Sequence record: OR544954
Length of the DNA stretch: 64,000 bases
Strand: one strand, 5' to 3'
Source of the DNA: Escherichia phage vB_EcoM_EP32a
Shown here in pieces: positions 44,393-60,289 of the stretch; within the stretch, counting starts at the first letter, position 1; each line of letters starts with the position of its first letter. A program made the translations under genes and the position numbers. Under the pieces are notes generated by a model. The model was not told the DNA's origin and ran no database searches. It saw nothing but the letters and a program-made list of their open reading frames with translations.

Positions 44393-44475
44393 AGACCATG
44401 ACCCACAAGCTTATGGACAACATCTTCAAATGAGCAAAGTTGGACGATTTACTGTAATGACTGTTTCATAAACGC

Positions 44476-44510
44476 TTTAACACGATGTGGTTATAATGAC
44501 CACATCAAAT
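44476..44510 (+). promoter_or_regulatory. promoter-like palindrome with TATAAT
   Basis: cgATGTGGTtataatgACCACATcaaattaaatggag. Confidence 0.35.
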
Positions 44511-44525
44511 TAAATGGAGAACAAC

Positions 44526-44714
44526 ATGGAGTATTCAACTGGCCAACATCTTCTCGTTGTCCCTGAAATTAAAAAATATGTTTTGACCAATACGTTTTCA
44601 GGTGAAGAACATATTGTTACTGAACAAATGCTCAAATCTGCTTTTAAAGATGAGTATAATAAAATAATGTCTAATCGCAATTCCGCATGGACAGTTACCG
44701 ACTTCTACGAATAA
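44526..44714 (+). CDS. 45.2: gp45.2-like small protein
   Basis: 62-aa ORF between 46 and rpbA, as in T4. Confidence 0.55.
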   Translation: MEYSTGQHLLVVPEIKKYVLTNTFSGEEHIVTEQMLKSAFKDEYNKIMSNRNSAWTVTDFYE

Positions 44715-44726
44715 GAGAGAAATAAT

Positions 44727-45143
44727 ATGTTTACTACTGCTAAAGGTTTCACTGCTGCTGATCTGAAAGTTACTTCTATCCGTACTGACGCTAACCCACA
44801 TAACCATAATCGTGTTCGTAAAGCATGGGTCCTGCATTGTGATGACGCAAGTGCTAAAAAACTCCAATCTTTGCCACAAGAAACTCGTTTTATGATTTAT
44901 GGTTTTATTGATAATGATGTATCTGATATGTGGATTCATCTGATGCATAAGCACTATAAAGATTCTATTGAAGCTGGTGGAAAAATCGTTCTTGATAAAG
45001 ACGGTTCTGAGCGTCTGGAAGATTTCTATTGTGTTGACGCTGACGAACAACTAATTGCAGCTGGCGAAATTGTTGCTTCTAAAATTCCAGAATATATTGA
45101 ATCACTGCCTGAAGCTATTAAAAAGCAGATGGTTGCTGCATAA
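44727..45143 (+). CDS. rpbA: RNA polymerase-binding protein RpbA-like
   Basis: 138-aa ORF directly upstream of gene 45 (synteny). Confidence 0.55.
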   Translation: MFTTAKGFTAADLKVTSIRTDANPHNHNRVRKAWVLHCDDASAKKLQSLPQETRFMIYGFIDNDVSDMWIHLMHKHYKDSIEAGGKIVLDKDGSERLEDFYCVDADEQLIAAGEIVASKIPEYIESLPEAIKKQMVAA

Positions 45144-45185
45144 TAAATTTGTTATAAACTTTGAATTGTCTTGAAAGGAAATAAA

Positions 45186-45872
45186 ATGAAACTGTCTAAA
45201 GATACTATCGCTATTCTGAAAAACTTTGCCTCTATTAACTCCGGCATTCTGCTGAGTCAAGGTAAATTTATTATGACTCGTGCAGTTAATGGCACCACTT
45301 ATGCGGAAGCAAATATCTCTGATGAAATTGATTTTGACGTAGCACTTTATGATTTGAATAGCTTCTTAAGCATTTTGAGTCTAGTGTCTGATGATGCTGA
45401 AATTTCAATGCACACTGATGGCAATATTAAAATTGCAGATACACGTTCCACAGTTTATTGGCCTGCCGCTGACAAGAGCACCATTGTTTTTCCTAATAAG
45501 CCAATTCAATTCCCGGTGGCTTCTGTGATTACTGAAATTAAAGCTGAAGACCTTCAACAATTGCTTCGAGTTTCACGTGGTCTTCAGATTGATACAATTG
45601 CTATTACAAATAAAGATGGTAAAATTGTTATCAATGGCTATAATAAAGTTGAAGATTCTGGTCTAACTCGTCCTAAGTATTCTTTGACTCTTACCGATTA
45701 TGATGGTTCTAACAACTTTAACTTCGTAATCAATATGGCTAATATGAAAATCCAGCCAGGTAACTATAAAGTAATGTTGTGGGGAGCTGGTGATAAAGTT
45801 GCAGCCAAGTTTGAAAGCTCTCAAGTAAGTTATGTTATTGCGATGGAAGCCGATTCTACTCACGACTTCTAA
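45186..45872 (+). CDS. 45: sliding clamp gp45
   Basis: MKLSKDTIAILKNFASINSGILLSQGKFIMTRAVNGTTYAEANISD... matches T4/RB69 gp45; 228 aa. Confidence 0.95.
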   Translation: MKLSKDTIAILKNFASINSGILLSQGKFIMTRAVNGTTYAEANISDEIDFDVALYDLNSFLSILSLVSDDAEISMHTDGNIKIADTRSTVYWPAADKSTIVFPNKPIQFPVASVITEIKAEDLQQLLRVSRGLQIDTIAITNKDGKIVINGYNKVEDSGLTRPKYSLTLTDYDGSNNFNFVINMANMKIQPGNYKVMLWGAGDKVAAKFESSQVSYVIAMEADSTHDF

Positions 45873-45947
45873 GTCAAAGCTTTACGTTTATTGTGATACG
45901 ATTATGGAGGAGAAATCCTCCAGTTTAATGATAATGAGGAAAATTAC

Positions 45948-46910
45948 ATGATTACTATCAATTCCAAAGAACACATTCTAGAACAGAAATATCGTCCTTC
46001 TTCCATTGATGAATGTATTCTGCCTGCGTATGACCATGAAACATTCAAGTCTTTAGTATCTAAAGGAAAACTTCCTCATATTATTTTACACTCTCCATCT
46101 CCTGGTACCGGTAAAACCACCGTGGCAAAAGCATTATGTAACGATATCAACGCTGAAATGATGTTTGTCAACGGTTCTGATTGTAAAATTGATTTTGTAC
46201 GCGGTCCGTTAACTGCATTTGCTCGTTCAGTCTCAATGGAAGGCAAACCTAAAGTTATTGTTATTGATGAATTTGACCGTAGTGGCCTCGCCGAATCACA
46301 ACGTCACCTTCGTACATTCATGGAAGAATTCTCTAGTAACTGTTCTATTATTATTACTGCCAACAACATCGATGGAATTATTGAACCATTACGTAGTCGT
46401 TGTCGAGTTATTGAATTCGGTCGTCCGACTGAAGAAGATAAAATCTCAATGATGAAGAAAATGATTCATCGCATGGTTGAAATCTGTAAGAACGAAAATA
46501 TCGAAATCGCTGATATGAAAGTTGTTGCAGCTCTGGTTAAAAAGAACTTTCCGGACTTTCGTCGTACAATTGGTCAATTAGACCAGTACTCGTCTAAAGG
46601 TGTTCTTGATGCAGGTATTTTGTCTATTGTAACCAATGATCGTGGCACGGTAGATGATGTCATAGAAGCAATGAAAAATAAAGATATCAAACAGCTTCGT
46701 GCGTTAGCTCCAAAATATGCCGCTGATTATTCATGGTTCATCGATAAATTAGTTTCTGAGTGTTATGACAAAGTTGCACCAGGTAAAAGTATTATTTCGC
46801 TTTATGAAATTGCAGGCGAAAATAATAAGTTTCATGGATTAGCAAGTAATATTGAATTACATGTTATGTATATGCTTCTTCAACTGACCTGCGAACTGAC
46901 TTGGAAATAA
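45948..46910 (+). CDS. 44: clamp loader large subunit gp44 (AAA+)
   Basis: Walker [11 protein letters not shown], Walker [12 protein letters not shown] motif; 320 aa. Confidence 0.95.
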
Positions 46911-46911
46911 T

Positions 46912-47475
46912 ATGAACTTATTTGATGATGACGTCCAACTTAACGAGCACCAAATTGCATGGAAGTCTAACGACGCTGATGCGATTCAAAAATGTGCTGA
47001 CATGTTTAAAGAAAAACCTGAGAATGAATTCTTTAAAATCATTAATGCTATTAATGAAAAGAAATCTATGTCAATTGCTCAGGTCGACTACTCAAAATTT
47101 ATGGTTGAGAACTCATTATCCCAGTTTCCAGAATGTATGCCCGCAGTTTACATGATGAACTTGGTCGGTTCTGAATTAAGTGATGAAGCACACTTCAACT
47201 ATATGATGGCCGCCGTTCCGCGTGGCCGACGATTCTCTAAATGGGCTAAACTAGTTGAAGACACTTCAGAGTTACTAGTTATCAAACTGTTGATGAAACG
47301 TTACACAATCAACATGAATGATGCTACCGAGTATAAGCGGCTCCTTGAAAAAAATAACAAGTTGCCAATAGTCCTTAAAGAACTGAAGGCCATGGTCACT
47401 GATGAGTTTCTCAAAGAAGTTACAAAAAATGTGAAAGAACAAAAACAATTTAAAAAATTAGCATTGGAATGGTAA
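46912..47475 (+). CDS. 62: clamp loader small subunit gp62
   Basis: 187 aa as in T4; immediately after gene 44. Confidence 0.85.
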
Positions 47476-47477
47476 AA

Positions 47478-47846
47478 ATGATTGAAATTAAATTGAAGAA
47501 CCCCGAAGATTTTCTTAAAGTCAAAGAGACTCTGACCCGTATGGGCATCGCTAATAACAAGGATAAAGTTCTTTATCAGTCCTGTCATATCCTCCAAAAG
47601 CAAGGTAAATATTACATCGTCCACTTTAAAGAAATGTTGCGTATGGACGGGCGTCAAGTTGATATTGATGGTGAAGACTACCAACGACGTGATTCGATTG
47701 CCCAGTTGCTTGAAGACTGGGGATTGATTGTTATTGAAGACTCTGCTCGTGAAGATCTGTTTGGCCTAACTAATAACTTCCGTGTTATCTCTTTTAAACA
47801 GAAAGATGACTGGACTTTGAAAGCAAAATATACAATTGGTAATTAA
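47478..47846 (+). CDS. regA: translational repressor RegA
   Basis: MIEIKLKNPEDFLKVKETLTRMGIANNKDKVLYQSCHILQKQGKYYIVHFKEMLRMDGRQV matches T4 RegA; 122 aa. Confidence 0.9.
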   Translation: MIEIKLKNPEDFLKVKETLTRMGIANNKDKVLYQSCHILQKQGKYYIVHFKEMLRMDGRQVDIDGEDYQRRDSIAQLLEDWGLIVIEDSAREDLFGLTNNFRVISFKQKDDWTLKAKYTIGN

Positions 47847-47852
47847 AGCAAT

Positions 47853-47866
47853 GGGACTTCGGTCCC
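47853..47866 (+). terminator. UUCG hairpin (terminator or RNA stability element)
   Basis: GGGACttcgGTCCC; weak T-run (attt). Confidence 0.35.
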
Positions 47867-47899
47867 ATTTGGAGTATAATAAGTTCATCAACAAACAAA

Positions 47900-47927
47900 A
47901 GACAATAACTCGTCTAAAGGAAATTAA
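47900..47927 (+). promoter_or_regulatory. gene 43 translational operator (hairpin with 8-nt loop AAUAACUC next to the SD)
   Basis: AGAC-aataactc-GTCT followed by aAAGGAaattaaATG; matches the T4 gp43 autoregulatory operator as I recall it. Confidence 0.5.
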
Positions 47928-50639
47928 ATGAAAGAATTTTACTTAACGGTTGAACAGATTGGTGATTCAATTTTTGAACGTTACATCGATTCTAATGGCC
48001 GTGAACGTACTCGTGAAGTAGAATATAAACCATCGCTGTTTGCTCATTGTCCAGAAAGTCAGGCTACGAAATATTTCGATATCTACGGTAAGCCGTGTAC
48101 TCGTAAGTTGTTCGCTAATATGCGTGATGCCTCCCAATGGATTAAACGCATGGAAGATATCGGACTTGAAGCACTTGGCATGGACGATTTCAAATTGGCG
48201 TATTTGTCTGACACTTATAACTATGAAATCAAATACGACCATACAAAAATTCGTGTGGCTAACTTCGACATCGAAGTAACATCTCCGGACGGGTTCCCTG
48301 AGCCGTCACAAGCAAAACATCCTATTGATGCTATCACCCATTATGACTCAATTGACGACAGGTTCTACGTATTTGATCTATTGAATTCTCCATATGGTAA
48401 TGTGGAAGAATGGTCTATCGAAATTGCAGCTAAGCTTCAAGAACAAGGTGGTGATGAAGTTCCATCCGAAATTATCGACAAAATCGTTTATATGCCGTTT
48501 GATAATGAAAAAGAATTATTGATGGAATATCTCAACTTCTGGCAACAGAAAACTCCTGTCATTTTGACTGGATGGAACGTTGAGTCATTTGATATTCCAT
48601 ATGTGTATAACCGAATCAAGAATATTTTTGGCGAATCTACTGCGAAACGTTTATCACCACATCGTAAAACTCGCGTTAAAGTTATCGAAAACATGTATGG
48701 TTCTCGTGAAATCATTACATTGTTCGGTATCTCTGTTCTTGATTACATTGACCTTTACAAAAAATTCTCTTTTACTAATCAACCGTCGTATTCTCTGGAT
48801 TACATTTCAGAATTTGAATTGAACGTTGGTAAACTGAAATATGACGGCCCTATTTCTAAGCTTCGTGAAAGCAATCACCAACGATATATTTCTTATAACA
48901 TTATCGACGTGTATCGTGTATTGCAAATTGATGCTAAGCGTCAGTTCATCAACTTGAGTTTGGACATGGGTTATTATGCTAAGATACAGATTCAATCTGT
49001 GTTTAGCCCAATTAAAACATGGGATGCTATTATTTTTAATAGCCTTAAAGAGCAGAACAAGGTGATTCCACAAGGTCGTTCTCACCCGGTTCAACCTTAT
49101 CCTGGCGCTTTTGTTAAGGAACCTATTCCAAATCGATACAAATATGTAATGAGTTTCGACCTTACATCTCTGTATCCAAGTATTATTCGCCAAGTGAATA
49201 TTAGCCCAGAAACAATAGCAGGAACGTTTAAAGTAGCTCCATTGCATGATTATATTAACGCTGTTGCTGAACGTCCTTCTGATGTGTACAGTTGCTCTCC
49301 TAACGGCATGATGTATTATAAAGACCGTGATGGTGTAGTTCCAACTGAAATCACTAAAGTCTTTAATCAACGTAAAGAACATAAAGGTTATATGCTTGCG
49401 GCTCAACGTAATGGTGAAATAATTAAAGAGGCGTTGCATAATCCTAATCTTTCTGTTGACGAACCATTAGATGTTGATTATCGTTTCGACTTTAGCGATG
49501 AGATTAAAGAAAAGATTAAAAAGTTGTCTGCTAAATCTCTTAATGAAATGTTGTTTAGAGCTCAACGTACTGAAGTTGCAGGTATGACTGCCCAAATTAA
49601 CCGTAAATTGCTTATCAACTCACTTTATGGTGCACTTGGCAACGTTTGGTTCCGTTATTACGATTTGCGTAATGCTACTGCAATCACAACATTTGGTCAA
49701 ATGGCTTTACAGTGGATTGAACGTAAAGTTAATGAATATCTGAATGAAGTTTGTGGCACAGAAGGTGAAGCTTTCGTTCTTTATGGTGATACAGACTCTA
49801 TTTACGTATCTGCTGATAAAATTATCGATAAGGTTGGTGAATCTAAATTCCGTGATACCAACCATTGGGTAGACTTCTTAGATAAGTTTGCACGTGAACG
49901 TATGGAACCAGCTATTGATAGAGGTTTCCGTGAAATGTGTGAATACATGAACAATAAACAACACTTAATGTTCATGGACCGAGAAGCTATCGCTGGTCCT
50001 CCGCTTGGTTCTAAAGGTATTGGTGGATTCTGGACTGGCAAGAAACGTTATGCATTAAACGTGTGGGATATGGAAGGCACTCGTTACGCTGAGCCTAAAC
50101 TCAAAATCATGGGTCTCGAGACTCAGAAATCTTCGACTCCTAAAGCAGTACAGAAAGCTCTTAAAGAATGTATTCGTCGTATGCTTCAAGAAGGTGAAGA
50201 ATCATTACAAGAATATTTTAAAGAGTTTGAAAAAGAATTCCGTCAATTGAATTATATTAGCATCGCGTCGGTATCTTCTGCGAATAACATTGCTAAATAT
50301 GACGTAGGTGGATTCCCTGGTCCCAAATGCCCGTTCCATATTCGTGGAATTCTGACGTATAACCGGGCTATCAAAGGTAATATTGATGCTCCACAAGTTG
50401 TAGAAGGTGAAAAAGTATATGTTCTGCCTTTACGTGATGGAAACCCATTCGGTGATAAATGTATCGCATGGCCTTCTGGTACTGAAATCACAGATTTAAT
50501 TAAAGACGACGTACTTCATTGGATGGACTACACTGTTCTCCTTGAGAAGACATTTATTAAACCACTTGAAGGATTCACATCAGCAGCGAAACTCGATTAC
50601 GAGAAGAAAGCATCTCTGTTCGATATGTTCGATTTTTGA
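47928..50639 (+). CDS. 43: DNA polymerase gp43 (family B)
   Basis: 903 aa; exonuclease motifs FDIEV, YNIIDV; polymerase motifs DLTSLYPSII, KLLINSLYGALG, YGDTDS; long stretches match the RB69 gp43 sequence as I recall it. Confidence 0.97.
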   Translation: MKEFYLTVEQIGDSIFERYIDSNGRERTREVEYKPSLFAHCPESQATKYFDIYGKPCTRKLFANMRDASQWIKRMEDIGLEALGMDDFKLAYLSDTYNYEIKYDHTKIRVANFDIEVTSPDGFPEPSQAKHPIDAITHYDSIDDRFYVFDLLNSPYGNVEEWSIEIAAKLQEQGGDEVPSEIIDKIVYMPFDNEKELLMEYLNFWQQKTPVILTGWNVESFDIPYVYNRIKNIFGESTAKRLSPHRKTRVKVIENMYGSREIITLFGISVLDYIDLYKKFSFTNQPSYSLDYISEFELNVGKLKYDGPISKLRESNHQRYISYNIIDVYRVLQIDAKRQFINLSLDMGYYAKIQIQSVFSPIKTWDAIIFNSLKEQNKVIPQGRSHPVQPYPGAFVKEPIPNRYKYVMSFDLTSLYPSIIRQVNISPETIAGTFKVAPLHDYINAVAERPSDVYSCSPNGMMYYKDRDGVVPTEITKVFNQRKEHKGYMLAAQRNGEIIKEALHNPNLSVDEPLDVDYRFDFSDEIKEKIKKLSAKSLNEMLFRAQRTEVAGMTAQINRKLLINSLYGALGNVWFRYYDLRNATAITTFGQMALQWIERKVNEYLNEVCGTEGEAFVLYGDTDSIYVSADKIIDKVGESKFRDTNHWVDFLDKFARERMEPAIDRGFREMCEYMNNKQHLMFMDREAIAGPPLGSKGIGGFWTGKKRYALNVWDMEGTRYAEPKLKIMGLETQKSSTPKAVQKALKECIRRMLQEGEESLQEYFKEFEKEFRQLNYISIASVSSANNIAKYDVGGFPGPKCPFHIRGILTYNRAIKGNIDAPQVVEGEKVYVLPLRDGNPFGDKCIAWPSGTEITDLIKDDVLHWMDYTVLLEKTFIKPLEGFTSAAKLDYEKKASLFDMFDF

Positions 50640-50679
50640 TATAATGTCATGGACGGTAAACTAATTAAATGAGAGAAAT

Positions 50680-51315
50680 ATGAAAACTACTCCTATTACT
50701 ATCGCTATTGACGCAATCATAAAACAAGCTTCTTCTTTGGCCGCTATGGCCAAAGTAATTAGTCAAAACCCTGCTCGTTATAATGCTATTCTAGAAACTC
50801 TTCGACGCCCTGGACTTAGTAATTATGAAAGCCGGGTAATTATTACAGGTGTTGGTAAGAATGCTAATATCGCAACTAAAGCTTCCGAGACTTTTGCTTC
50901 ACTAGGTATTCCTAGCATGTATTTGAACACCGGGCATTATTCTCATGGTGATGCAGGATTTATTGCGCCTAATGATGTGTTGATTCATATTAGTCGTTCT
51001 GGTAAAACTGAAGAAATGATAGGTGTTGCTAAACATCTTCGTATGATTCGTCCTCAGGTTAAACAGATTCTGTTACATTGTAACCCAGACATTCCACAAG
51101 AATACGAAGCTCTTTTTGATTATACGTTCTGTACCGGTATCGCGGTAGAAGTTGACGAGAACTCTTTGGCTCCGACTATGTCCACTACATTGTTGTTAGC
51201 GCTTATCGATACGTTTGCTATCAACCTTTCGTCTGAACGCGGATTTACCTCTAATGACTTCCTTAAGTTCCACCCTGGTGGTGCACTAGGTGCCATGTTA
51301 CGAGGCGAACAATGA
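50680..51315 (+). CDS. SIS-domain sugar phosphate isomerase, KdsD/GutQ-type arabinose-5-phosphate isomerase-like
   Basis: VIITGVGKNANIATKASETFASLGIP, HGDAGF, ISRSGKTEE, LAPTMSTT, RGFTSNDFLKFHPGGALG align with the KdsD SIS domain by eye; 211 aa, single SIS domain. Confidence 0.8.
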   Translation: MKTTPITIAIDAIIKQASSLAAMAKVISQNPARYNAILETLRRPGLSNYESRVIITGVGKNANIATKASETFASLGIPSMYLNTGHYSHGDAGFIAPNDVLIHISRSGKTEEMIGVAKHLRMIRPQVKQILLHCNPDIPQEYEALFDYTFCTGIAVEVDENSLAPTMSTTLLLALIDTFAINLSSERGFTSNDFLKFHPGGALGAMLRGEQ

Positions 51316-51443
51316 AAGCAATAACAATAGGACTTTTACTATTGATGCTTGTCATGACTATCTACTGGAGCTTAATGGCTCCAGTAATGATTCCAACACT
51401 TGTAATTGGATGGATTATGATTGGACTACAAGCAAAGTATGAA

Positions 51444-51468
51444 TGCTTTATCTAGAATAGTGTACAAT
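51444..51468 (+). promoter_or_regulatory. middle promoter (MotA box aaTGCTTTA, -10 TACAAT)
   Basis: MotA box 51444-51450, TACAAT at 51463-51468, 29 nt before the ATG at 51497. Confidence 0.45.
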
Positions 51469-51496
51469 ACTCCTACTTACCAATGAGGACTTCAAC

Positions 51497-53182
51497 ATGA
51501 AAAAAGCTGTTATTCTTGGTGCTGGACTGGCAACTCGTTTGTATCCAATAACGCATCATATTCCTAAGGTGCTTGTTAACTATAAACAAGACACTATTCT
51601 GAGCAATTTGTATACAATTTATTCTGACCTTGGCGCAGATGAAATTATTGTAGTAGTTCATTCAAAATTTGCTGAAACCGTTCGAGCTTATTGTGAGCAA
51701 GAAGGGTTCAATGTGACTATTCGTACAGTTGATGAAGCGTATGGTTCTGCTTATGCTCTTGCTAAATTATACAAAGATTTAGATGGCCATAACGTAATTG
51801 TTAACTGGTGTGATATTATTCCTGATTTTGGTTCATGGTCTTGGAATGTTAACGCAATCTATGTTAAGGGTGATGAATGTCGATATAATTTCGACGGTGA
51901 AAATATCACTAACGTAGGTTCAACGGGTGGTAATGTTGTAGGAATTTACCAGTTCAAAGACTGGGAATTCTATATGGGTTCTACTGATGAGGAAATTCAT
52001 GAATACTGCAAAGGACGTGATTTCGTAGAATTCCTTTACGGGAGTGCATTCAATAAATCAGAGCTTATGAATCTAATTGATTTAGGTGATATGCCTAAAC
52101 TTGAAAAAGCTCATGAAGTTCGTGAACTTAATCGTAGTTTTAATGCAGTTGAAATTGGTGAAGAAACTGTAACTAAATTCGCATTAACCGAACAGGGTCG
52201 AGCTCTTCAGAAAGATGAGATTTCATGGTATCTTAAAGTGAAATCAGATTCAGTTCCTCAGTTAGTTTCTGTTAATGAAAATAACTTTGAAATGGAACGC
52301 ATTAAAGGTAAGCCGGCATTTGAATATATTAAATCCAAATCAAGTCTTGCTCGTCCACAAATTGTTGATGCAATTTTAGATGCACTGAAATTCAGCACAG
52401 ACACTTATTTTGTAAGTCCTGAAACTGTTCGTCGTGATTTCACTAAAGAATTCTATACGAAAGTTATTGATCGTTGTGAAAGCATTCAGCCATTGATTGA
52501 TTCATTTGGTAAAATCACACATGTGAACTACACTAAGATTGGACGTCTGAAGCCAATGCTGAAACAAGCTTTAGAACACCTTATTCGTTATCATAACCGT
52601 TCTCAGGGACAGTACTCTGTTATTCACGGTGACCCGAACTTCAGTAATACTATGATTACTGATAATGGCGAAGTCAAGTTTATCGACCCTCGTGGATATT
52701 TTGGTGAAACCAAGATTTACGGGCCAAAATTGTATGACGAAGCTAAAGTGCTTTATGCTGTTTCAGGTTATGATGAATTCAATGCTAATCCAACCTGGGG
52801 ACAGTTTACTATTGATGAAACAACTTGTAATGTGACTATTAACATCAATCCATTAGTTTACAAATATGGAAAGATGAGTTCGTTTAACGAGTATCATCAT
52901 TTGGCAGTGGCAATTATCTGGATTGCATTAGGTGGTTATTTCAAGAATAATCCACTTAAAGCGGTAGCCGCATATTATAAAGGTATGGAACTTCTGACTA
53001 AGCAATTACGTAACATGGGCCGTGTACTTCAGGACGGCTCTATTAGTTATGACGTAGCAGAACCTGTAACGGCTACTCTGATTACAAAAAATCCTGGTAA
53101 ATGGGTACTAACTGATAAAGAAACTGGTGTTTCCTATCGTCCAATCGGTGGCGATATCACTCATCAATGGGAACGAATCTAA
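51497..53182 (+). CDS. bifunctional sugar-1-phosphate nucleotidyltransferase (N-terminal) / APH-ChoK-fold kinase (C-terminal)
   Basis: N-terminus AVILGAGLATRLYPITHHIPKVLV (G-x-G-x-x-R, LicC/MurU-like); C-terminus VIHGDPNFSNTMITDNGEVKFIDPRG (HGDxxxxN catalytic loop plus D of the APH/choline-kinase fold); 561 aa. Confidence 0.75.
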   Translation: MKKAVILGAGLATRLYPITHHIPKVLVNYKQDTILSNLYTIYSDLGADEIIVVVHSKFAETVRAYCEQEGFNVTIRTVDEAYGSAYALAKLYKDLDGHNVIVNWCDIIPDFGSWSWNVNAIYVKGDECRYNFDGENITNVGSTGGNVVGIYQFKDWEFYMGSTDEEIHEYCKGRDFVEFLYGSAFNKSELMNLIDLGDMPKLEKAHEVRELNRSFNAVEIGEETVTKFALTEQGRALQKDEISWYLKVKSDSVPQLVSVNENNFEMERIKGKPAFEYIKSKSSLARPQIVDAILDALKFSTDTYFVSPETVRRDFTKEFYTKVIDRCESIQPLIDSFGKITHVNYTKIGRLKPMLKQALEHLIRYHNRSQGQYSVIHGDPNFSNTMITDNGEVKFIDPRGYFGETKIYGPKLYDEAKVLYAVSGYDEFNANPTWGQFTIDETTCNVTININPLVYKYGKMSSFNEYHHLAVAIIWIALGGYFKNNPLKAVAAYYKGMELLTKQLRNMGRVLQDGSISYDVAEPVTATLITKNPGKWVLTDKETGVSYRPIGGDITHQWERI

Positions 53183-53568
53183 TGCACCGTGTAGAAAACA
53201 TGCTTAATCTTTGTTTTGATGTCGACGATTGTATAACAGAGTGGAATAACAATCGTGATTACGTGAACTTCAAGCCAGACGTCGAAATGGTGACTGCCAT
53301 TAATGCCCTGTATGATGCAGGGCATACCATAACGCTTTACACTGCTCGTGGTATGAAGTCAGTAGGTCCTGGACGTATAGCAATTGATATTCTCCCAAGT
53401 CTGATTCAGAACTTGGCAAACATTGGCTTGAAGTACCATAATTTGCTAACACATAAACCAGTATATGATTGGATTATCGACGACAAAGCTATGCGTCCTG
53501 ACGAATTCAAAGCTCTTATGAATAAAGGCGAATTCGAAACATTTAAATCGTATAAACCGAATCTATAA
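53182..53568 (+). CDS. HAD-superfamily phosphatase-like protein
   Basis: Motif I-like FDVDDCIT, motif II ITLYTARG, motif III/IV HKPVYDWIIDDKA; start taken at the ATG overlapping the upstream stop. Confidence 0.55.
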   Translation: MHRVENMLNLCFDVDDCITEWNNNRDYVNFKPDVEMVTAINALYDAGHTITLYTARGMKSVGPGRIAIDILPSLIQNLANIGLKYHNLLTHKPVYDWIIDDKAMRPDEFKALMNKGEFETFKSYKPNL

Positions 53569-53628
53569 TAATTTAAGTAAGACCTGCAAAAAAAAACCAT
53601 CGCGTCAATTAACGTGAGATGCAAAAAA

Positions 53629-54789
53629 ATGAATACTTTTAAAATCGGAACGAATTTTGATTTAGCTCTTCTTGATAAAATCGTAGAGCTCAATAAAACT
53701 TATCCTAATAGCTTGATAAACGAAGTATACGGCTCTACAAGAGAAATGGCTTTTGTAGCAGCCAGACCTGATTTTAGGCTTCCTGACGTTGACAAAAAGA
53801 TGTTAGAAGATTACGTTAAACGTTGTAACGAATTAGGTATTTGCTTTAACTATACACTCAACACGATAAATCCTGGTTCAAAAAGAGAACTAGTTGAGTG
53901 GAAGAAGAAAGCTATTCAGGATTATGTTCAGTATCTTTGGTCAATAGGCGTATGGCGTATTACTATCGCTAACCCTGTTGTTATGGAAATTGTTCGTGAA
54001 GTCAATAAAGACATTGAGATTGAAGTTTCAACAATTCTACATGTCGATGCTGTAACTCAAATAAAATACTTACATGACCAATACAATATCAAAAAGGTCT
54101 GCTGTGGAATTCATAAGAACCGTTCAGTTTCTTTCCTGAAGCGTGCAGCAGAGTTTTGCAATAAGAACAATATAATATTTGAAGTTCTTGTAAATGAGTT
54201 CTGTTCTAATGCTGGTAAAGGGTATACAACACATTGTAGCTATCGTGACTCTTGCTATATTTTCCATAGTACTGATGTTACAGCTGATGATGCTAAATCC
54301 TTAAACGGGTATCCTATGCAGCACTGTATTAAAGCTCGTGATACAGACCCATTTAACTGGTTGAGAACTCGTTTTGTTCGTCCTCAAGATTTGAAACTTT
54401 ATAATGATATTGGTATCACTCAATTCAAAGTTTCAGGACGTACAGGTAGCACAGACTACATTTTGAAAGTTCTTGAAGCATACGCTTCTGAAAAGTTTGA
54501 AGGTAATTTGTTAGAACTGTGGAAGCCTTTAGAGACTATTTTCACTCTTGAAAACGAAACTGAGTTTTCACATACAGTAAATATTGAAACCTCTTTGTTA
54601 GATGGCTTTTTAGAAAAAAGGTGGTTCAGACATCCAGATTTCGATTGTGCTAATGAAATCTGCGGGACGACGTGTACATATTGTGAAAGATATTATAAAC
54701 GTCAATTATCTAAAAACGGGTTAGCAGAAAACTCTATATCTATTATTGATATAACTAACTCTGATGACGCTTTGAGGTACCCGGAATGA
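53629..54789 (+). CDS. hypothetical Cys-cluster protein (possibly peptidase-U32-like)
   Basis: 386 aa; NEFCSNAGKGYTTHCSYRDSC resembles the U32 signature E-x-F-x2-G-[SA]-h-C-x4-G-x-C; C-terminal C-x4-C-x3-C-x2-C; assignment tentative. Confidence 0.45.
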   Translation: MNTFKIGTNFDLALLDKIVELNKTYPNSLINEVYGSTREMAFVAARPDFRLPDVDKKMLEDYVKRCNELGICFNYTLNTINPGSKRELVEWKKKAIQDYVQYLWSIGVWRITIANPVVMEIVREVNKDIEIEVSTILHVDAVTQIKYLHDQYNIKKVCCGIHKNRSVSFLKRAAEFCNKNNIIFEVLVNEFCSNAGKGYTTHCSYRDSCYIFHSTDVTADDAKSLNGYPMQHCIKARDTDPFNWLRTRFVRPQDLKLYNDIGITQFKVSGRTGSTDYILKVLEAYASEKFEGNLLELWKPLETIFTLENETEFSHTVNIETSLLDGFLEKRWFRHPDFDCANEICGTTCTYCERYYKRQLSKNGLAENSISIIDITNSDDALRYPE

Positions 54790-55025
54790 TTTCTAGAAAA
54801 ACTTTTAATCACCGACTTAATGAAGAGATTTTGACTACGAAACTGAACACTAACGAACAAATTCTTAAAAAGGCCCTGATGGGCCTGTTTGAAATTAAAG
54901 CGGCTAAAGTGATTAAAGAACCTGTTCAATTGGAATACTACGCTGATGCATTTCTTCATAGTGTTCTTGGAAGTATCGATGCTGAAGCTTTACGTTATAT
55001 CAACATTGTCAAGAAATTCAAATAA
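54786..55025 (+). CDS. hypothetical protein
   Basis: 79-aa ORF ATGA-coupled to the preceding gene; not membrane-like, so unlikely to be Imm. Confidence 0.4.
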   Translation: MISRKTFNHRLNEEILTTKLNTNEQILKKALMGLFEIKAAKVIKEPVQLEYYADAFLHSVLGSIDAEALRYINIVKKFK

Positions 55026-55066
55026 GCTTTACGAATTGAGTATATAATAATTGTATTGAGGTAAAC

Positions 55067-55783
55067 ATGGGAAAACATAACACAATGAAATATATCAAAG
55101 CCGCAGATTTTCAAACCGCATTTAAAGCAGTCAATCGTGAAATTTTAGAAAACCCGGAATTCGTAACTGATTCTCGTATTGGACGTTGTAATGAAATTGG
55201 GTCTATGACAGTAGTTGTTGACACTCCATCATCATTCAAAATGACAGACCCACGTATTAACCGCATCTCTTATGAATATGCCGAAGACTTCTGGAAGTTT
55301 ATGATTTCTGGTGGTACCAACGCAGAAGAAGCGTTTAAGGCATATCCTAATGTCGCTAAATTTATTTCTAAACCAAAATCAGATGTTTTGCCGGCGAACT
55401 TCAACACTTTCTATGGTCCTCGCATTGCGGCCCAGCTACCGGCTCTTCTAAAAGAACTTAAAGAGAAGCCTAACTCTCGAAGAGTTGTGTTCCAAATTCT
55501 AGAAAGTTCTGATCAGGCTTTGCTTGATTCGGACGAAACGCTTGAATATCCATGTACTGACTCAGTGACTTATTATATTCGTGATGGTAAGCTTTATACC
55601 CACTGTCATATGCGTTCCCAGAACTGTGCTGTTGTTATGCAGTTGGATTTTTATCTCCAAGGAAAATTACTTCATTATATCGCTAACGAATGTGGTGTAG
55701 AAGTTGGTGATTATACTCATACCATGGTAAGTGCCCATGTGTTTGAACGTGATTTTGATTATGTTAAAGGATTCCTTGACTAA
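55067..55783 (+). CDS. 42: dCMP hydroxymethylase gp42 (thymidylate-synthase fold)
   Basis: NSRRVVFQI, YPCTDSVTYYIRDGKLYTHCHMRSQN, VSAHVFERDF correspond to T4 gp42 motifs (DSRRG, CTNTVQYLIRD, SLHVYSRHF); 238 aa. Confidence 0.8.
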   Translation: MGKHNTMKYIKAADFQTAFKAVNREILENPEFVTDSRIGRCNEIGSMTVVVDTPSSFKMTDPRINRISYEYAEDFWKFMISGGTNAEEAFKAYPNVAKFISKPKSDVLPANFNTFYGPRIAAQLPALLKELKEKPNSRRVVFQILESSDQALLDSDETLEYPCTDSVTYYIRDGKLYTHCHMRSQNCAVVMQLDFYLQGKLLHYIANECGVEVGDYTHTMVSAHVFERDFDYVKGFLD

Positions 55784-56682
55784 TGGCTATTTTCCGCGTA
55801 CCTATCTTGAGTATGCGGTCTTATGAAACTGGACAGTATGCTATCCTTAAGGATGGCAACTTCCAACTTCATTTGCACCGTGCTAATCCAGGTGATGTGA
55901 TTACATATCCACGTAATGCATCTGATATTAAAGAATGCGAACGTCTTTTTCCGGAATTTAAGTTTGTTCCATTATGGTATAAAGATAACGCGTATAACAC
56001 TCGTAAATATTTCTGGTCTGAAAATGAATTTGTGGTTGATTCATTAATTGCTTATTATGATTGTGATTTTCTAATCACAGATATCACCGGATATGATGGC
56101 GCTTTTGACGTAGAATTCAATTTCAATATCACTGCAGACCCTAATAAACCACGTTTTTATATTGATGAATTCTTAAAAACCGACATGTTGTCTGTTAATC
56201 GTTCACTTCAAACTACTGTGTTGAATGAACGTCAAAAAGAAGTGCTGGTTAACGCAGGTGCAGATGGTAATAAGATTATCGTAACACAGAAAGTTATACG
56301 TCCTTCCGTCATGCAGCGTCTTGTAGGTGATTTGGCTCCTATTCATCTAGATGGTATTTTTCATCCATTTCGAATTAGTGACCCATGCTATCGTTTTGAA
56401 CAAGTGGTTGAATGCGCAATTCAATTAGGTCAACCGCTTTATATAACTGATCCAAATAATAGTTTCGACAGAAATAAGTATCCTGAAGAAGCGCTGATTC
56501 GAATTTTTAATCCAACTAAAACTGAGTACTATCAAATTCTTAAAGGACGTCCGAAGATTCAATATTTCGAAAATCCTGAAGAAGTATTCCATCCAGGTCT
56601 TGGTGAGTTCATCTACTTTAATGCTTTAATTTCTTCACCGTATAATATACCTAAATACGAAGATGTCGTAATCGAGGAATAA
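55783..56682 (+). CDS. hypothetical protein in the beta-glucosyltransferase slot (candidate hmC-DNA glycosyltransferase)
   Basis: 299-aa ORF ATGG-coupled to gene 42, between 42 and uvsX where T4 has beta-gt; no similarity to T4 beta-gt by eye; function from position only. Confidence 0.45.
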   Translation: MAIFRVPILSMRSYETGQYAILKDGNFQLHLHRANPGDVITYPRNASDIKECERLFPEFKFVPLWYKDNAYNTRKYFWSENEFVVDSLIAYYDCDFLITDITGYDGAFDVEFNFNITADPNKPRFYIDEFLKTDMLSVNRSLQTTVLNERQKEVLVNAGADGNKIIVTQKVIRPSVMQRLVGDLAPIHLDGIFHPFRISDPCYRFEQVVECAIQLGQPLYITDPNNSFDRNKYPEEALIRIFNPTKTEYYQILKGRPKIQYFENPEEVFHPGLGEFIYFNALISSPYNIPKYEDVVIEE

Positions 56683-56683
56683 A

Positions 56684-57232
56684 ATGGCTAAAATTATTTT
56701 AGTAGACGGGCCTGATAATGCTGGTAAAACAACTTTCATTAATGACATAATGGAAATTAGTGAAAGATATGTAAAGATTGATTTCCCTAAACGAACAGTT
56801 GATGGGCGTTTCGATGTTAAGTCTCGAAATGAAGTTGGCTGTTTCGAAACGATGTTGAATTATTTAGACCCTACTAAGATTTATCTATTAGACCGTGGAT
56901 ATATTAGTAACTGGGTTTATGGACGTATTCGACAAGATGCGGACTCGGTTCTTGACGTTTATGAACAGGATTATGTTCGTCTTTGCCAAAACCATGATGT
57001 GTTCACAATTATTTTAACCCGTAACGAAATGACTGAAAGTTTTGAAGACGACCTTATTACTTTGTCTTCATTCGGTTTTAATACAGTCATTTCACATTTT
57101 GAAGAGTTTGCAATTCATAACAAAATCCAAACGTATCAATTACTTAATCATGATGGTTCTAACAAAGTTATAGGATTTAATGCAAGTGAACGTAATAATT
57201 TGATTACAGAAATCATTAAATGGGCTCGTTAA
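56684..57232 (+). CDS. P-loop kinase, thymidylate-kinase/dNK-like fold
   Basis: IILVDGPDNAGKTTFIND, LLDRGYISNWVYG (DR motif); 182 aa; separate from gene 1. Confidence 0.55.
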   Translation: MAKIILVDGPDNAGKTTFINDIMEISERYVKIDFPKRTVDGRFDVKSRNEVGCFETMLNYLDPTKIYLLDRGYISNWVYGRIRQDADSVLDVYEQDYVRLCQNHDVFTIILTRNEMTESFEDDLITLSSFGFNTVISHFEEFAIHNKIQTYQLLNHDGSNKVIGFNASERNNLITEIIKWAR

Positions 57233-57251
57233 GAGCCATTTAAAGTTTTAA

Positions 57252-57281
57252 ATGCTGTATAACTCTTAGTATATAATCATC
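57252..57281 (+). promoter_or_regulatory. middle promoter upstream of uvsX (MotA-box-like AAATGCTGTA plus TATATAAT)
   Basis: MotA-like box 57252-57261, -10 about 12 nt downstream. Confidence 0.4.
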
Positions 57282-57330
57282 TTATCTTTTAAACATGAGT
57301 AAAATATAATGATGCCTATGGAAAAATACA

Positions 57331-58503
57331 ATGTCTGATTTAAAATCTCGTCTGATTAAAGCTTCTACTTCTAAAATGACTGCAGACTTGACTAAGTCTA
57401 AGCTGTTTAATAATCGTGATGAAGTCCCTACTCGTATTCCGATGTTGAATATTGCATTAGGTGGTGCTCTGAATGCAGGATTGCAATCAGGCTTGACTAT
57501 TTTTGCTGCTCCTTCTAAACACTTTAAAACGTTGTTTGGACTAACTATGGTTGCAGCATATATGAAGAAATATAAAGATGCAATTTGTTTGTTCTATGAT
57601 TCAGAATTTGGTGCTTCAGAATCTTATTTTCGTTCAATGGGTGTTGATTTAGACCGTGTAGTTCATACACCAATTCAGTCAGTAGAACAACTTAAAGTTG
57701 ATATGACTAATCAGCTTGACGCGATTGAACGCGGTGATAAAGTTATTATCTTTATCGATTCAATCGGTAATACTGCATCTAAGAAAGAAACTGAAGATGC
57801 ATTGAACGAGAAAGTTGTAGGTGATATGTCTCGTGCTAAGGCACTTAAATCTCTTTTCCGTATTGTGACCCCGTATCTGACTATTAAAGATATTCCGTGT
57901 GTTGCAATTAACCATACCGCAATGGAAATTGGCGGATTGTATCCTAAAGAGATTATGGGCGGTGGTACAGGTATTCTTTATTCTGCTAACACTGTATTCT
58001 TTATCTCTAAACGTCAGGTTAAAGAAGGTACAGAATTGACCGGTTATGACTTCACGTTGAAAGCAGAAAAATCTCGTACAGTTAAAGAGAAATCTACTTT
58101 CCCGATCACGGTTAATTTCGATGGTGGTATCGACCCATTCAGTGGCTTGCTAGAAATGGCAACTGAAATCGGTTTTGTGGTTAAGCCTAAAGCCGGGTGG
58201 TATGCTCGTGAATTCCTTGACGAAGAAACAGGTGAAATGATTCGTGAAGAGAAATCGTGGCGTGCTAAAGCTACTGATTGTGTAGAATTCTGGGGACCGT
58301 TGTTTAAACACAAGCCTTTCCGTGACGCAATTGAAACTAAATATAAACTAGGTGCTATCTCTTCTATTAAAGAAGTTGATGACGCTGTTAACGACCTTAT
58401 TAATTGCAAAGCAACAACTAAAGTTCCGGTTAAAACTTCTGATGCTCCGTCTGCAGCAGATATAGAAAACGACCTTGACGAAATGGAAGATTTCGATGAA
58501 TAA
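57331..58503 (+). CDS. uvsX: recombinase UvsX (RecA-like)
   Basis: MSDLKSRLIKASTSKMTADLTKSKLFN...; Walker A AAPSKHFKT; 390 aa (T4 391 aa). Confidence 0.95.
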   Translation: MSDLKSRLIKASTSKMTADLTKSKLFNNRDEVPTRIPMLNIALGGALNAGLQSGLTIFAAPSKHFKTLFGLTMVAAYMKKYKDAICLFYDSEFGASESYFRSMGVDLDRVVHTPIQSVEQLKVDMTNQLDAIERGDKVIIFIDSIGNTASKKETEDALNEKVVGDMSRAKALKSLFRIVTPYLTIKDIPCVAINHTAMEIGGLYPKEIMGGGTGILYSANTVFFISKRQVKEGTELTGYDFTLKAEKSRTVKEKSTFPITVNFDGGIDPFSGLLEMATEIGFVVKPKAGWYAREFLDEETGEMIREEKSWRAKATDCVEFWGPLFKHKPFRDAIETKYKLGAISSIKEVDDAVNDLINCKATTKVPVKTSDAPSAADIENDLDEMEDFDE

Positions 58504-58837
58504 TCTCGATGATTTAAATCTAGAAATCGTTGATGAATCCCCTTCTTTGGAAGGGGAGGACATTCGCAAAGAACGAGTGTTTAATGAATCTCTTAAAATT
58601 GTCCGTTCAGCAATGGAAAATGTCATTCAAGAGATTCTGATTACACTTGAAGACGGTTCCCATCATATAGTCTATATTACAAAACTAGACTGGGTTGATG
58701 GTAAAATCGTAATGGACTTTGCAGTTCTTGACCAGGACAGAAAAGCAGAACTTGCGCCACATGTTGAAAAATGTGTTACAATGCAAGTACAACAAGCTTT
58801 TAATGAACGGACCAAGAAAAAATTTAAATTCTTTTAA
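58496..58837 (+). CDS. 40: gp40-like protein
   Basis: 113-aa ORF between uvsX and 41 (synteny); start overlaps uvsX stop. Confidence 0.55.
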   Translation: MNNLDDLNLEIVDESPSLEGEDIRKERVFNESLKIVRSAMENVIQEILITLEDGSHHIVYITKLDWVDGKIVMDFAVLDQDRKAELAPHVEKCVTMQVQQAFNERTKKKFKFF

Positions 58838-58846
58838 GGAGTTATC

Positions 58847-60289
58847 GTGGTAGAAATTATTTTGTCTCATCTAGTATACGACCAGGCTTATTTTTCTAAG
58901 GTCTGGCCTTATATGGATTCTGAGTATTTTGAGCGTGGACCGGCAAAAAACGTCTTTAAAATTATAAAGAGCCACGTTAACGAATATAATGCAATGCCGT
59001 CTATCAATGCATTAAAGGTGGCTTTAGATAACAGTTCTTTAACTGAAGCTGAATATAAAGGAACTTCAGACCTAATTGAAAAATTGGCTGATACTCCTGA
59101 AGACCATGAATGGCTGGTTAAAGAAACTGAGAAATATGTCCAGCAAAAAGCGATGTATAATGCTACGTCCAAAATCATTGAGATTCAGTCTAATGCTGAA
59201 CTACCTCCAGAACAACGTAACAAGAAAATGCCTGACGTAGGAGCTATTCCTGATATTATGCGTCAAGCACTTTCAATTTCGTTTGATAGTTATGTTGGAC
59301 ATGACTGGATGGAAGACTACGAAGCACGCTGGCTTTCTTATCTAAATAAAGCACGTAAGGTCCCGTTCAAATTAAACATTCTGAATAAAATCACTAAAGG
59401 TGGTGCTGAAACAGGTACACTGAATGTTTTAATGGCCGGTGTTAACGTTGGTAAATCTTTAGGCCTTTGTTCACTTGCTGCAGATTATCTTCAAACAGGT
59501 CATAATGTTCTTTATATTTCCATGGAAATGGCTGAAGAAGTTTGTGCTAAGCGTATAGATGCAAACATGCTTGACGTATCACTCGATGATATCGATGATG
59601 GTAACGTATCTTATGCCGAATATAAAGCCAAGATGGAAAAATGGCGTTCAAAATCCACATTAGGACGTTTAGTAGTTAAACAGTATCCTACTGGTGGAGC
59701 TAACGCTAATACATTTCGTGCATTGCTTAATGAGTTAAAACTTAAGAAGAACTTTGTGCCATCTGTAATCATGGTTGATTACTTAGGTATTTGTGGGTCT
59801 TGTCGTATCAGAGTTTACACTGAAAATAGCTACACATTAGTTAAAGCTATCGCAGAAGAACTTCGTGCATTAGCAGTAGAATCTGAAACAGTTCTATGGA
59901 CTGCAGCTCAAGTAGGACGTGCAGCATGGGATGCTTCGGATATGAACATGAGTGATATTGCAGAATCAGCAGGTTTACCAGCAACGGCAGATTTCATGTT
60001 GGCTGTAATTGAAACCGAAGAACTTGCACAAGCTGAACAACAACTTATCAAACAAATCAAATCACGATATGGTGATAAGAATAAGTGGAATAAATTCCTG
60101 ATGGGTGTACGTAAAGGCAACCAGAAATGGATTGAGATTGAGCAAGAAGGCATGAACACACCTAACACAGTAAATGAAAACGCAGGTGCTCAGATGCGTC
60201 AGGCAGAGGTGAATCGTACGGAACGCGTAGGTAAAGCCAAAGCAACACGGGCTGACCTAGATAGCTTAGCCAATGAGTTAAAATTTTAA
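58847..60289 (+). CDS. 41: replicative helicase gp41 (DnaB-like)
   Basis: MVEIILSHLVYDQAYFSKVWPYMDSEYFE...; Walker A MAGVNVGKSL; GTG start after AAGGAG; 480 aa. Confidence 0.95.
   Translation: MVEIILSHLVYDQAYFSKVWPYMDSEYFERGPAKNVFKIIKSHVNEYNAMPSINALKVALDNSSLTEAEYKGTSDLIEKLADTPEDHEWLVKETEKYVQQKAMYNATSKIIEIQSNAELPPEQRNKKMPDVGAIPDIMRQALSISFDSYVGHDWMEDYEARWLSYLNKARKVPFKLNILNKITKGGAETGTLNVLMAGVNVGKSLGLCSLAADYLQTGHNVLYISMEMAEEVCAKRIDANMLDVSLDDIDDGNVSYAEYKAKMEKWRSKSTLGRLVVKQYPTGGANANTFRALLNELKLKKNFVPSVIMVDYLGICGSCRIRVYTENSYTLVKAIAEELRALAVESETVLWTAAQVGRAAWDASDMNMSDIAESAGLPATADFMLAVIETEELAQAEQQLIKQIKSRYGDKNKWNKFLMGVRKGNQKWIEIEQEGMNTPNTVNENAGAQMRQAEVNRTERVGKAKATRADLDSLANELKF

Follow-up and report, generated by a model that had tools for sequence, protein, structure and literature searches.

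The stretch of DNA analyzed here, referred to as the window, comprises 64,000 nt of Escherichia phage vB_EcoM_EP32a (record OR544954). Within it, an open reading frame (ORF) of 299 residues, starting with ATG and located at 55783-56682 on the + strand, is the best candidate for the base-proximal arabinosyltransferase of 5-hydroxycytosine (5hoC), the enzyme that would attach the first sugar to the modified base. We infer its first-step role, donor, acceptor, and residue roles from two bodies of evidence: the present analysis contributes orthology, synteny, the predicted fold, and the match between gene and sugar numbers, and the literature contributes the DNA chemistry, the hydroxylase activity, the donor pathway, and the action of later transferases on DNA. 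The assignment has already been proposed in print in 2025-26, as a prediction, and would not surprise a specialist in 2026; the RB69 orthologue, gp46:47, was named “arabinosyltransferase 1” from its fold and synteny, without measured activity (Lee et al., NAR 2026, PMC13326640). The first-sugar enzyme is the only step of the pathway without reconstituted activity in the accessible literature. DNA carrying arabinosyl-5-hydroxycytosine shields many T4-like phages from restriction enzymes, CRISPR-Cas, and the glycosylase Brig1, and the shielded phages include many therapy candidates against E. coli, Klebsiella, and Acinetobacter.

Genomic slot and upstream hydroxylase gene

The window belongs to an RB69-like Mosigvirus, the genus in which RB69 itself is classified; sequence identity in this region is 99.2% with Escherichia phage vB_EcoM_WFL6982 and 98-99% with JS09 and many other RB69-like phages. 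The 299-residue ORF is a genuine gene and not a chance reading frame, given its detection in 348 phage records by tblastn, its match to the unnamed family PHROG 3891 at E 1e-155, and 34 invariant columns among 41 aligned homologues with identities down to 36%.

The original prediction had placed this unassigned protein in the slot of the T4 beta-glucosyltransferase (beta-gt), and the gene orders agree: T4 has 42, beta-gt, segA, uvsX, 40, and 41, and the window has a thymidylate synthase (ThyA) homologue, the 299-residue ORF, a 182-residue ORF, uvsX, 40, and 41. The lack of visible similarity to T4 beta-gt was likewise confirmed (best BLASTP E of 3.6; hhalign probability of 0.1%). The ORF does not directly precede uvsX, as had been stated, because a 182-residue Tmk-like kinase ORF (56684-57232) intervenes; this begins 1 nt past the transferase stop, and uvsX starts only at 57331. 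A GAGGA Shine-Dalgarno sequence for the kinase gene lies at 56674-56678 (+ strand), within the 3' end of the transferase ORF. The proposed translational coupling to the upstream gene also rests on a real overlap, but this is a TAATG stop/start overlap (55781-55785, + strand; junction gacTAATGgct), not the ATGG first described. The TAA of the upstream ORF (55067-55783) and the ATG of the transferase gene have 1 nt in common, an overlap through which the hydroxylase and transferase genes are coupled, and AAGGA is found 11 nt upstream of this ATG. Thanatos-1 has an identical TAATG at the same junction, and phage P10VF and a metagenome contig from an uncultured phage (L004) have ATGA there. A promoter and terminator scan of 50500-57500 gave fewer promoter-like sites than shuffled sequence, which is uninformative on transcription units, and no convincing terminator within the cluster.

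The upstream gene (55067-55783, + strand) had been taken for a dCMP hydroxymethylase. Judging from its sequence, it is instead a dCMP 5-hydroxylase (5-hydroxy-dCMP [5hodCMP] synthase) of the thymidylate synthase family and of the RB69 gp48 type, and would be the source of the acceptor base. Its product matches Pfam Thymidylat_synt and is identical to the homologue of phage HY126 at 233 of 238 positions. It also matches PDB 9iqc, 9ir2, and 9iqu (chains of 238 and 234 residues titled “Thymidylate synthase”) at E 8e-161, which we take to be the HY126 flavin-dependent dCMP 5-hydroxylase. The protein reads MRSQN where T4 gp42 reads MRSND, placing Asn at the position of ThyA Asp169; Asp occupies the position of Asn177. 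The comparison with T4 gp42 is independent of the E. coli ThyA sequence that was used alongside it. The replacement of ThyA Asp169 by Asn is the hallmark of the hydroxylases (PMC13326640), of which RB69 gp48 and DLP3 gp80 turn dCMP into 5hodCMP with oxygen taken from O2 and with flavin bound (PMC13326640). For the crystal structure of the HY126 enzyme with flavin, Lee et al. cite He et al. (PMC13326640).

RB69 DNA contains alpha-D-arabinofuranosyl (Araf)-5-hydroxy-dC and beta-D-Araf-(1-3)-alpha-D-Araf-5-hydroxy-dC and neither dC nor 5-hydroxymethylcytosine (hmC) (PMC13326640). The sugar in RB69-type DNA is joined to 5hoC via an ether bond (PMC13326640, PMC13390438), and the DNA sugars of the Durham Mosigvirus NP are as in RB69 (PMC13390438). 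Together with the identity of the hydroxylase, this chemistry suggests that the acceptor of the first sugar is the ring 5-OH of 5hoC, not hmC, so that an assay on hmC-DNA would use the wrong substrate. Of the earlier idea that the ORF encodes the transferase for the sugar on hmC-DNA, the kind of enzyme is supported by the predicted GT-B glycosyltransferase fold and by the phyletic and synteny evidence given below, and the base has to be replaced by 5hoC.

In uncultured phages, a Flavodoxin_2 gene (flavin mononucleotide reductase-like) lies upstream of the Asn-signature ThyA homologue (L002 605-1123; L004 6739-7293) and directly adjoins it in L004, which would fit a flavin-dependent hydroxylase needing reduced flavin. 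No Flavodoxin_2-type gene was noticed in the 44000-60000 part of the window.

Predicted fold and distribution of the family

An AlphaFold2 model built from the alignment of the 41 homologues (mean pLDDT 94.7, pTM 0.89) contains two beta/alpha/beta domains, both Rossmann-like, with a cleft between them. This high-confidence model predicts a GT-B fold and, at 299 residues, a minimal GT-B enzyme. A fold unrelated to nucleotide-sugar transferases would have spoken against the candidate; the best neighbors of the model are UDP/ADP-sugar glycosyltransferases. In the Foldseek search, MshA, HepE, and a mannosyltransferase reached template modeling (TM) scores of 0.58-0.63, and the lowest E-values were those of UDP-GlcNAc 2-epimerases (TM 0.42-0.52). 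The invariant residues of the N-terminal domain are S10-M-R-S13, Y19, K23-D-G-N26, R33, and R74, and those of the C-terminal domain are F193-x-P-F-R197, D200, T222-D-P-N225, K246, and H270-P-G272, plus E/D275. In both domains of the model they lie at strand ends and helix starts, as is typical for cleft-lining residues of Rossmann-type enzymes; the individual roles suggested for them below are putative.

Phages of Klebsiella, Serratia, Enterobacter, Proteus, and Yersinia are among the 348 phage records with a member of the family. Among 5.8 billion proteins searched, 138 homologues were found; none has a Pfam domain, all are unnamed or “hypothetical”, and every one of them that bears an organism name is a phage protein. 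The transferase is 100% identical in phages vB_EQ1, phiEC1, EP32B, and LF82-2, and is identical to HY126 XAN60474 at 295 of 299 positions; identity is 47.5% with Thanatos TH1_063 and about 46% with the DLP-type Acinetobacter phages (tblastn). RB69 gp46:47, DLP3 gp79, XAN60474, and TH1_063 are orthologues that occupy the equal slot between hydroxylase and kinase, with no substantive difference from the window protein, which thus belongs to the RB69 gp46:47-type family by both orthology and flanking genes. The placement of hydroxylase, transferase, and kinase is alike in RB69, HY126, Thanatos, P10VF, and L004.

As a new observation, the hydroxylase, transferase, and kinase genes essentially co-occur in the same phages. 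The Asn-type ThyA homologue was found in 345 phage records and the 182-residue kinase in 343, next to the 348 of the transferase, and the counts per genus for hydroxylase, transferase, and kinase were 176/176/176 in Escherichia, 57/57/57 in Acinetobacter, 26/26/25 in Klebsiella, and 15/15/15 in Shigella phages. The kinase gene lies directly downstream of the transferase gene at every related locus examined, with homologous kinases in Thanatos, P10VF, L002, and L004. The Asn signature is present in every ThyA homologue adjacent to the transferase, including those of Pootjesviridae and uncultured phages.

Distant homologues in Rhizobium phages are likewise new here: a long-form member (P0103) matches records of 19 Rhizobium phages with identities of about 26%. 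In P10VF, the matching gene, P10VF_178, is flanked by an Asn-signature ThyA homologue and a homologous kinase and has an ATGA overlap, an arrangement that agrees with the hydroxylase, “galactosyltransferase 1”, and kinase set RL38J1_216/215/214 listed by Lee et al. (PMC13326640). Among the contigs of uncultured phages, L004 contains the full run of ThyA homologue, transferase, and kinase, and L002 contains the transferase-kinase pair. These Rhizobium and uncultured-phage members suggest that the family tracks the 5-hydroxy acceptor and not a particular sugar.

A second, GT4-type transferase, represented by RB69 gp3, is more restricted, with 211 phage records by tblastn against 348 for the 299-residue family, and was not found by tblastn in Serratia, Shewanella, Klebsiella, Yersinia, and Proteus phages. 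Across phages, transferase genes and sugars agree in number, which is also new here (sugar numbers are literature values and gene counts are from tblastn). Thanatos-1 and Serratia phage LC53 have the 299-residue family, no detected gp3 type, and one sugar; Mosigvirus members (RB69, Bas46, and NP) add one copy of the gp3 type and have a mix of one and two sugars; and T4-like Acinetobacter phages of the DLP3 type add two copies and have up to three sugars, as measured for DLP3. This offers a simple rule by which mono-, di-, and tri-glycosylation could be predicted from the transferase gene count. It also agrees with the hypothesis of Lee et al. that the family starts the sugar chain, the mono-arabinosylated Thanatos having only this transferase in the syntenic place (PMC13326640).

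The same pattern bears on the idea that the 299-residue enzyme performs a later step, arabinose onto arabinose, and that the gp3-type GT4 enzyme sets the first sugar. RB69 ORF003c (gp3) was earlier proposed as “the” arabinosyltransferase (Thomas et al. 2018), and the gp3-type enzyme is the one that has been crystallized with UDP (HY126 PDB entries). We consider this reversed order very improbable, since the single-arabinose phages Thanatos and LC53 have the 299-residue family and no detectable gp3-type gene, and since it is this family, not the gp3 type, that accompanies the hydroxylase in every lineage, including the hexose-using Rhizobium phages. Bas46 is reported to be viable without an arabinosyltransferase called Aat (as summarized in PMC13216743), which, if Aat is the gp3-type enzyme, would fit a dispensable second-sugar step.

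Natural gene fusions, also new here, were seen among the 229 cluster representatives that an exhaustive profile search found at E <= 0.001. At least seven representatives begin with a KdsC-like haloacid dehalogenase (HAD) phosphatase joined to the transferase, which ties the transferase to the sugar pathway. A C-terminal Tmk-like kinase is fused to it in at least six (P0231, P0232, P0237, P0244, P0255, and P0261), the domain order being the gene order. The contigs of three fusion proteins were too short for gene context; in the about 4 kb downstream of one transferase-kinase fusion lie genes for an arabinose-5-phosphate isomerase, an NTP-transferase, and a U32-family protein that is 48% identical to that of the window.

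In public records, the family is hard to recognize. The transferase is labeled “hypothetical protein” throughout the several dozen records listed, and the hydroxylase gene is variously called thymidylate synthase, dCMP hydroxymethylase, or deoxycytidylate 5-hydroxymethyltransferase. These labels are misleading and outdated across hundreds of genomes, and the present assignments would give the three genes that are inherited together, those of the hydroxylase, the first transferase, and the kinase, their correct names. In the RB69 record, the transferase DNA is annotated as two ORFs, ORF047c and ORF046c (NC_004928; L005 2098-2998). Aligned with the window DNA, the RB69 DNA is near-identical, differing by substitutions here and there and by a single additional T at ORF position 545 that accounts for this split; Lee et al. 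put the gp46:47 split down to a sequencing error (NAR 2026, PMC13326640). UniProt and BFVD keep the RB69 halves as separate proteins, Q7Y591 and Q7Y592. Structure matches in BFVD were RB69ORF047c and ORF046c, at 98% identity, and a protein of Acinetobacter phage KARL-1, with a TM score of 0.95.

Weaker relatives were seen in two Serratia phages. PS2 encodes one at NC_024121 24150-24683 (24% identity over 58% of the query, E 1e-6), and a 308-residue protein of Muldoon (BFVD A0A5P8PH66) has a TM score of 0.74 to the transferase at 18% identity. PS2 also has homologues of the T4-type beta-gt and the T2-type beta-alpha-gt (Thomas et al.). The PS2 findings suggest a wider, unrecognized family of compact phage GT-B enzymes.

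Proposed reaction and the rest of the module

In the reaction we propose, the coupled ThyA homologue would hydroxylate dCMP at C5, and the genes at 50680-53568 would lead from ribulose-5-phosphate to UDP-D-arabinofuranose (UDP-Araf). The C-terminal Rossmann domain of the 299-residue enzyme would hold the UDP-sugar via R197, T222-D-P-N225, K246, H270-P-G272, and E/D275, and the N-terminal domain would hold 5-hydroxy-deoxycytidine via S10-M-R-S13, K23-D-G-N26, R33, and R74. Araf would then be moved to the 5-OH, giving an alpha-D-Araf-O5 ether, and a separate GT4-type enzyme (RB69 gp3 type, encoded outside the window) would add the second, beta-linked arabinose. CAZy GT4 enzymes retain configuration. 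As the first RB69 linkage is alpha and the second beta (PMC13326640), use of a single UDP-Araf anomer by both enzymes would mean that one retains and the other inverts; given that the gp3 type is GT4-like, the 299-residue enzyme would be the inverting one. The nearest folds of the 299-residue protein are retaining enzymes, which opposes this assignment.

As for the level at which the first sugar is added, we tentatively regard action on 5hoC already in replicated DNA as the likeliest reading, by a narrow margin. It is favored by the T-even precedent and by the action on DNA of DLP3 gp76 and gp77, which put the third arabinose on DNA in vitro (PMC13326640).

Several observations weigh against the assignment as a whole or against its DNA-level form. 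The transferase has no Pfam match at E <= 0.1 and likewise none in NCBIfam, and searches of PDB sequences with phmmer and with the family profile gave no match; the sole PDB hit, to a sulfhydrogenase at E 0.4, was dismissed as noise. The E-x7-E motif of GT4 is absent from the family: at position 267 (eight before E275), 20 of the 41 sequences have K, 15 have T, and only 1 has E. The protein is acidic (isoelectric point [pI] 5.05, net charge -11), as is the family (median pI 5.14), and a median of about 5.1 against 9.05 for T4 beta-GT speaks weakly against extensive DNA binding; pI is a weakly informative proxy here, T4 alpha-GT and gp3 being mildly acidic too. No transferase activity is reported for any family member in the accessible literature. 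When purified DLP3 transferases, including gp79, were each assayed alone, 5hoC-DNA was not modified with UDP-Araf or UDP-arabinopyranose (data not shown in PMC13326640), and Lee et al. cannot distinguish nucleotide-level from DNA-level action (PMC13326640). The only arabinosylation transferase crystallized from HY126 (PDB 9iqz, 9ir0) corresponds to gp3 (E 3e-248) and not to XAN60474. Finally, TH1_063 is structurally glycosyltransferase-like, yet the activity reported for it is the formation of UDP-xylose from UTP and xylose-1-phosphate, not sugar transfer (Brandt et al.).

The last result raises the possibility that the family comprises nucleotide-sugar enzymes and not base transferases, either UDP-pentose pyrophosphorylases or proteins similar to UDP-sugar 2-epimerases, and the lowest Foldseek E-values, those of the non-hydrolyzing UDP-GlcNAc 2-epimerases, point the same way. 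We nevertheless consider such a function improbable. The fold is GT-B and not that of a nucleotidyltransferase, and neither a sequence match to the UDP-GlcNAc 2-epimerase family nor its catalytic acid/base residues were found in the ORF. The cluster already encodes an NTP-transferase protein whose HY126 orthologue is a UDP-arabinose pyrophosphorylase, the family also occurs in hexose-using Rhizobium phages, and the L004 member has no pentose-activation genes within 8 kb. Moreover, the mono-arabinosylated phages, in which the gp3 type is undetectable, would be left without a candidate transferase. The UDP-xylose activity of TH1_063 is hard to square with the fold and could stem from contamination or from a side reaction.

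A nucleotide-level route is a considerably more serious alternative to action on DNA, and we regard it as quite possible. The transferase would convert 5hodCMP into Araf-5hodCMP, the Tmk-like kinase would produce the diphosphate, and the polymerase would incorporate the glycosylated dCTP analogue, with later sugars added on DNA. The gene order of hydroxylase, transferase, and kinase would then be the pathway order, kept with stop/start overlaps in Straboviridae, Pootjesviridae, and uncultured phages, and the natural transferase-kinase fusions follow the same order, although the phosphatase-transferase fusions show that fusion need not mean consecutive steps. The kinase itself is also suggestive. 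The RB69 gp1-type dNMP kinase gp159 converts 5hodCMP into 5hodCDP (PMC13326640), which leaves the linked 182-residue kinase without an obvious substrate, and this could be the arabinosylated nucleotide; however, gp159 would supply 5hodCTP to DNA too, requiring a DNA-level transferase.

Further support for the nucleotide-level route comes from virion DNA, which contains no unglycosylated 5-hydroxy-dC, so that the first sugar is complete, whereas the second is partial. 5hoC in DNA is a miscoding oxidative lesion that is excised by Nth and Nei, and bare 5hoC in DNA would thus be a liability. The acidity of the protein and the inactivity of gp79 on 5hoC-DNA are consistent with this route as well, but the negative assay is weak evidence, as it was performed with 0.2 uM commercial UDP-Araf. 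On the other side, all characterized phage DNA sugars are post-replicative (T4 alpha- and beta-GT, DLP3 gp76 and gp77), and there is no evidence that a phage polymerase accepts Araf-5hodCTP. We know of no earlier case in which a phage glycosylates its DNA precursors at the nucleotide level; if true, this route would be the first, and it would explain both the second kinase and the inactivity of gp79 on 5hoC-DNA.

The other genes of the module, all on the + strand, lie upstream of the hydroxylase gene, except for the kinase gene (56684-57232; RB69 gp45, PHROG 761), whose product is a P-loop nucleotide kinase resembling thymidylate kinase. Donor synthesis would begin with a 211-residue arabinose-5-phosphate isomerase (50680-51315; RB69 gp55; NCBIfam KpsF/GutQ and KdsD), the first step of the donor pathway (PMC13326640). 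The next gene (51497-53182; RB69 gp52:53, AfhE-like) encodes a 561-residue bifunctional sugar kinase/NDP-sugar pyrophosphorylase with a Pfam NTP_transferase match and weak matches to kinase families; HY126 AfhE is a UDP-arabinose pyrophosphorylase that makes the UDP-Araf donor (PMC13326640). It is followed by a 133-residue HAD phosphatase (53167-53568; RB69 gp51, AfhF-like), which matches an NCBIfam capsule biosynthesis phosphatase and PDB 9iqw at E 2e-87; AfhF-like phosphatases convert Araf-1,5-P2 into Araf-1-P (PMC13326640).

The 391-residue protein encoded at 53614-54789 (RB69 gp50), a conserved member of the module, belongs to the U32 family (Pfam Peptidase_U32, E 7.5e-11; weak NCBIfam UbiU) and has a C-terminal Cys cluster, CANEICGTTCTYC. 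A homologue that is 48% identical is encoded three genes downstream of a transferase-kinase fusion on an unrelated metagenome contig (L012). The U32 proteins RlhA, TrhP, and UbiU/V hydroxylate rings without O2 and depend on prephenate, and the product of RlhA is 5-hydroxycytidine in rRNA. By analogy, the phage U32 protein may represent an anaerobic route to the 5-OH beside the ThyA homologue, which depends on O2 and flavin. In Lee et al., the U32 protein appears only as a “sugar or heterocycle reductase” (PMC13326640).

Between the U32 and hydroxylase genes, the window has a 79-residue ORF (54786-55025; RB69 gp49, PHROG 8601) with a 4-nt overlap with the U32 gene; its family occurs in Mosigvirus, Yersinia, and Pectobacterium phages. 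In 56 phage records, the U32 gene and the ThyA homologue are separated by genes for chorismate mutases of about 79 residues, for example in Enterobacter phage Entb_45 (L016 2783-3022; Pfam CM_2 E 2.4e-10, above the cut-off). These are found in Klebsiella, Serratia, Yersinia, Enterobacter, Edwardsiella, Erwinia, and Proteus phages, Thanatos-2, and others. Chorismate mutase yields prephenate, which fits the idea of a prephenate-dependent U32 hydroxylase. The possibility that the 79-residue ORF of the window is a diverged chorismate mutase was rejected, as the two show no similarity and are encoded by adjacent genes in Yersinia phage TG1; the chorismate mutase seems to be missing from Mosigviruses.

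Comparison with known glycosyltransferases

The T4 beta-glucosyltransferase (GT63, inverting) resembles the 299-residue protein in its slot after the gene 42 homologue and before uvsX and in its GT-B architecture, and each uses a UDP-sugar to O-glycosylate a cytosine that is substituted at C5, a reaction that is predicted in the case of the phage ORF. Their acceptors and donors differ, being CH2OH and UDP-Glc for the T4 enzyme and, by prediction, the ring 5-OH and UDP-Araf for the ORF. The T4 enzyme is also larger and basic (351 residues, pI 9.05, against 299 residues and pI 5.05), and neither BLASTP nor hhalign detected the sequence homology to T4 beta-gt that would place the ORF in GT63.

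The T4 alpha-glucosyltransferase (GT72) and the GT4-type retaining GT-B enzymes (sucrose-phosphate synthase 6kih, BshA, MshA, and PimA) are 7-12% identical to the ORF, which is about 60-100 residues shorter and lacks E-x7-E. Consistent with this, no match to Pfam Glycos_transf_1 or Glyco_trans_4 was found that would place it in GT4. RB69 gp3 and its crystallized HY126 counterpart (9iqz, 9ir0) have no detectable sequence relation to the 299-residue ORF (hhalign probability of 0.5%), and the gp3 gene lies about 22 kb from gp46:47 in RB69. In contrast, a sequence relation is detectable with the “galactosyltransferase 1” of Pootjesviridae (RL38J1_215 type; P10VF_178), at 26% identity over 79% of the long-form member (E 1e-9). 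This 343-residue protein differs in its sugar, a hexose, galactose being base-proximal in those phages.

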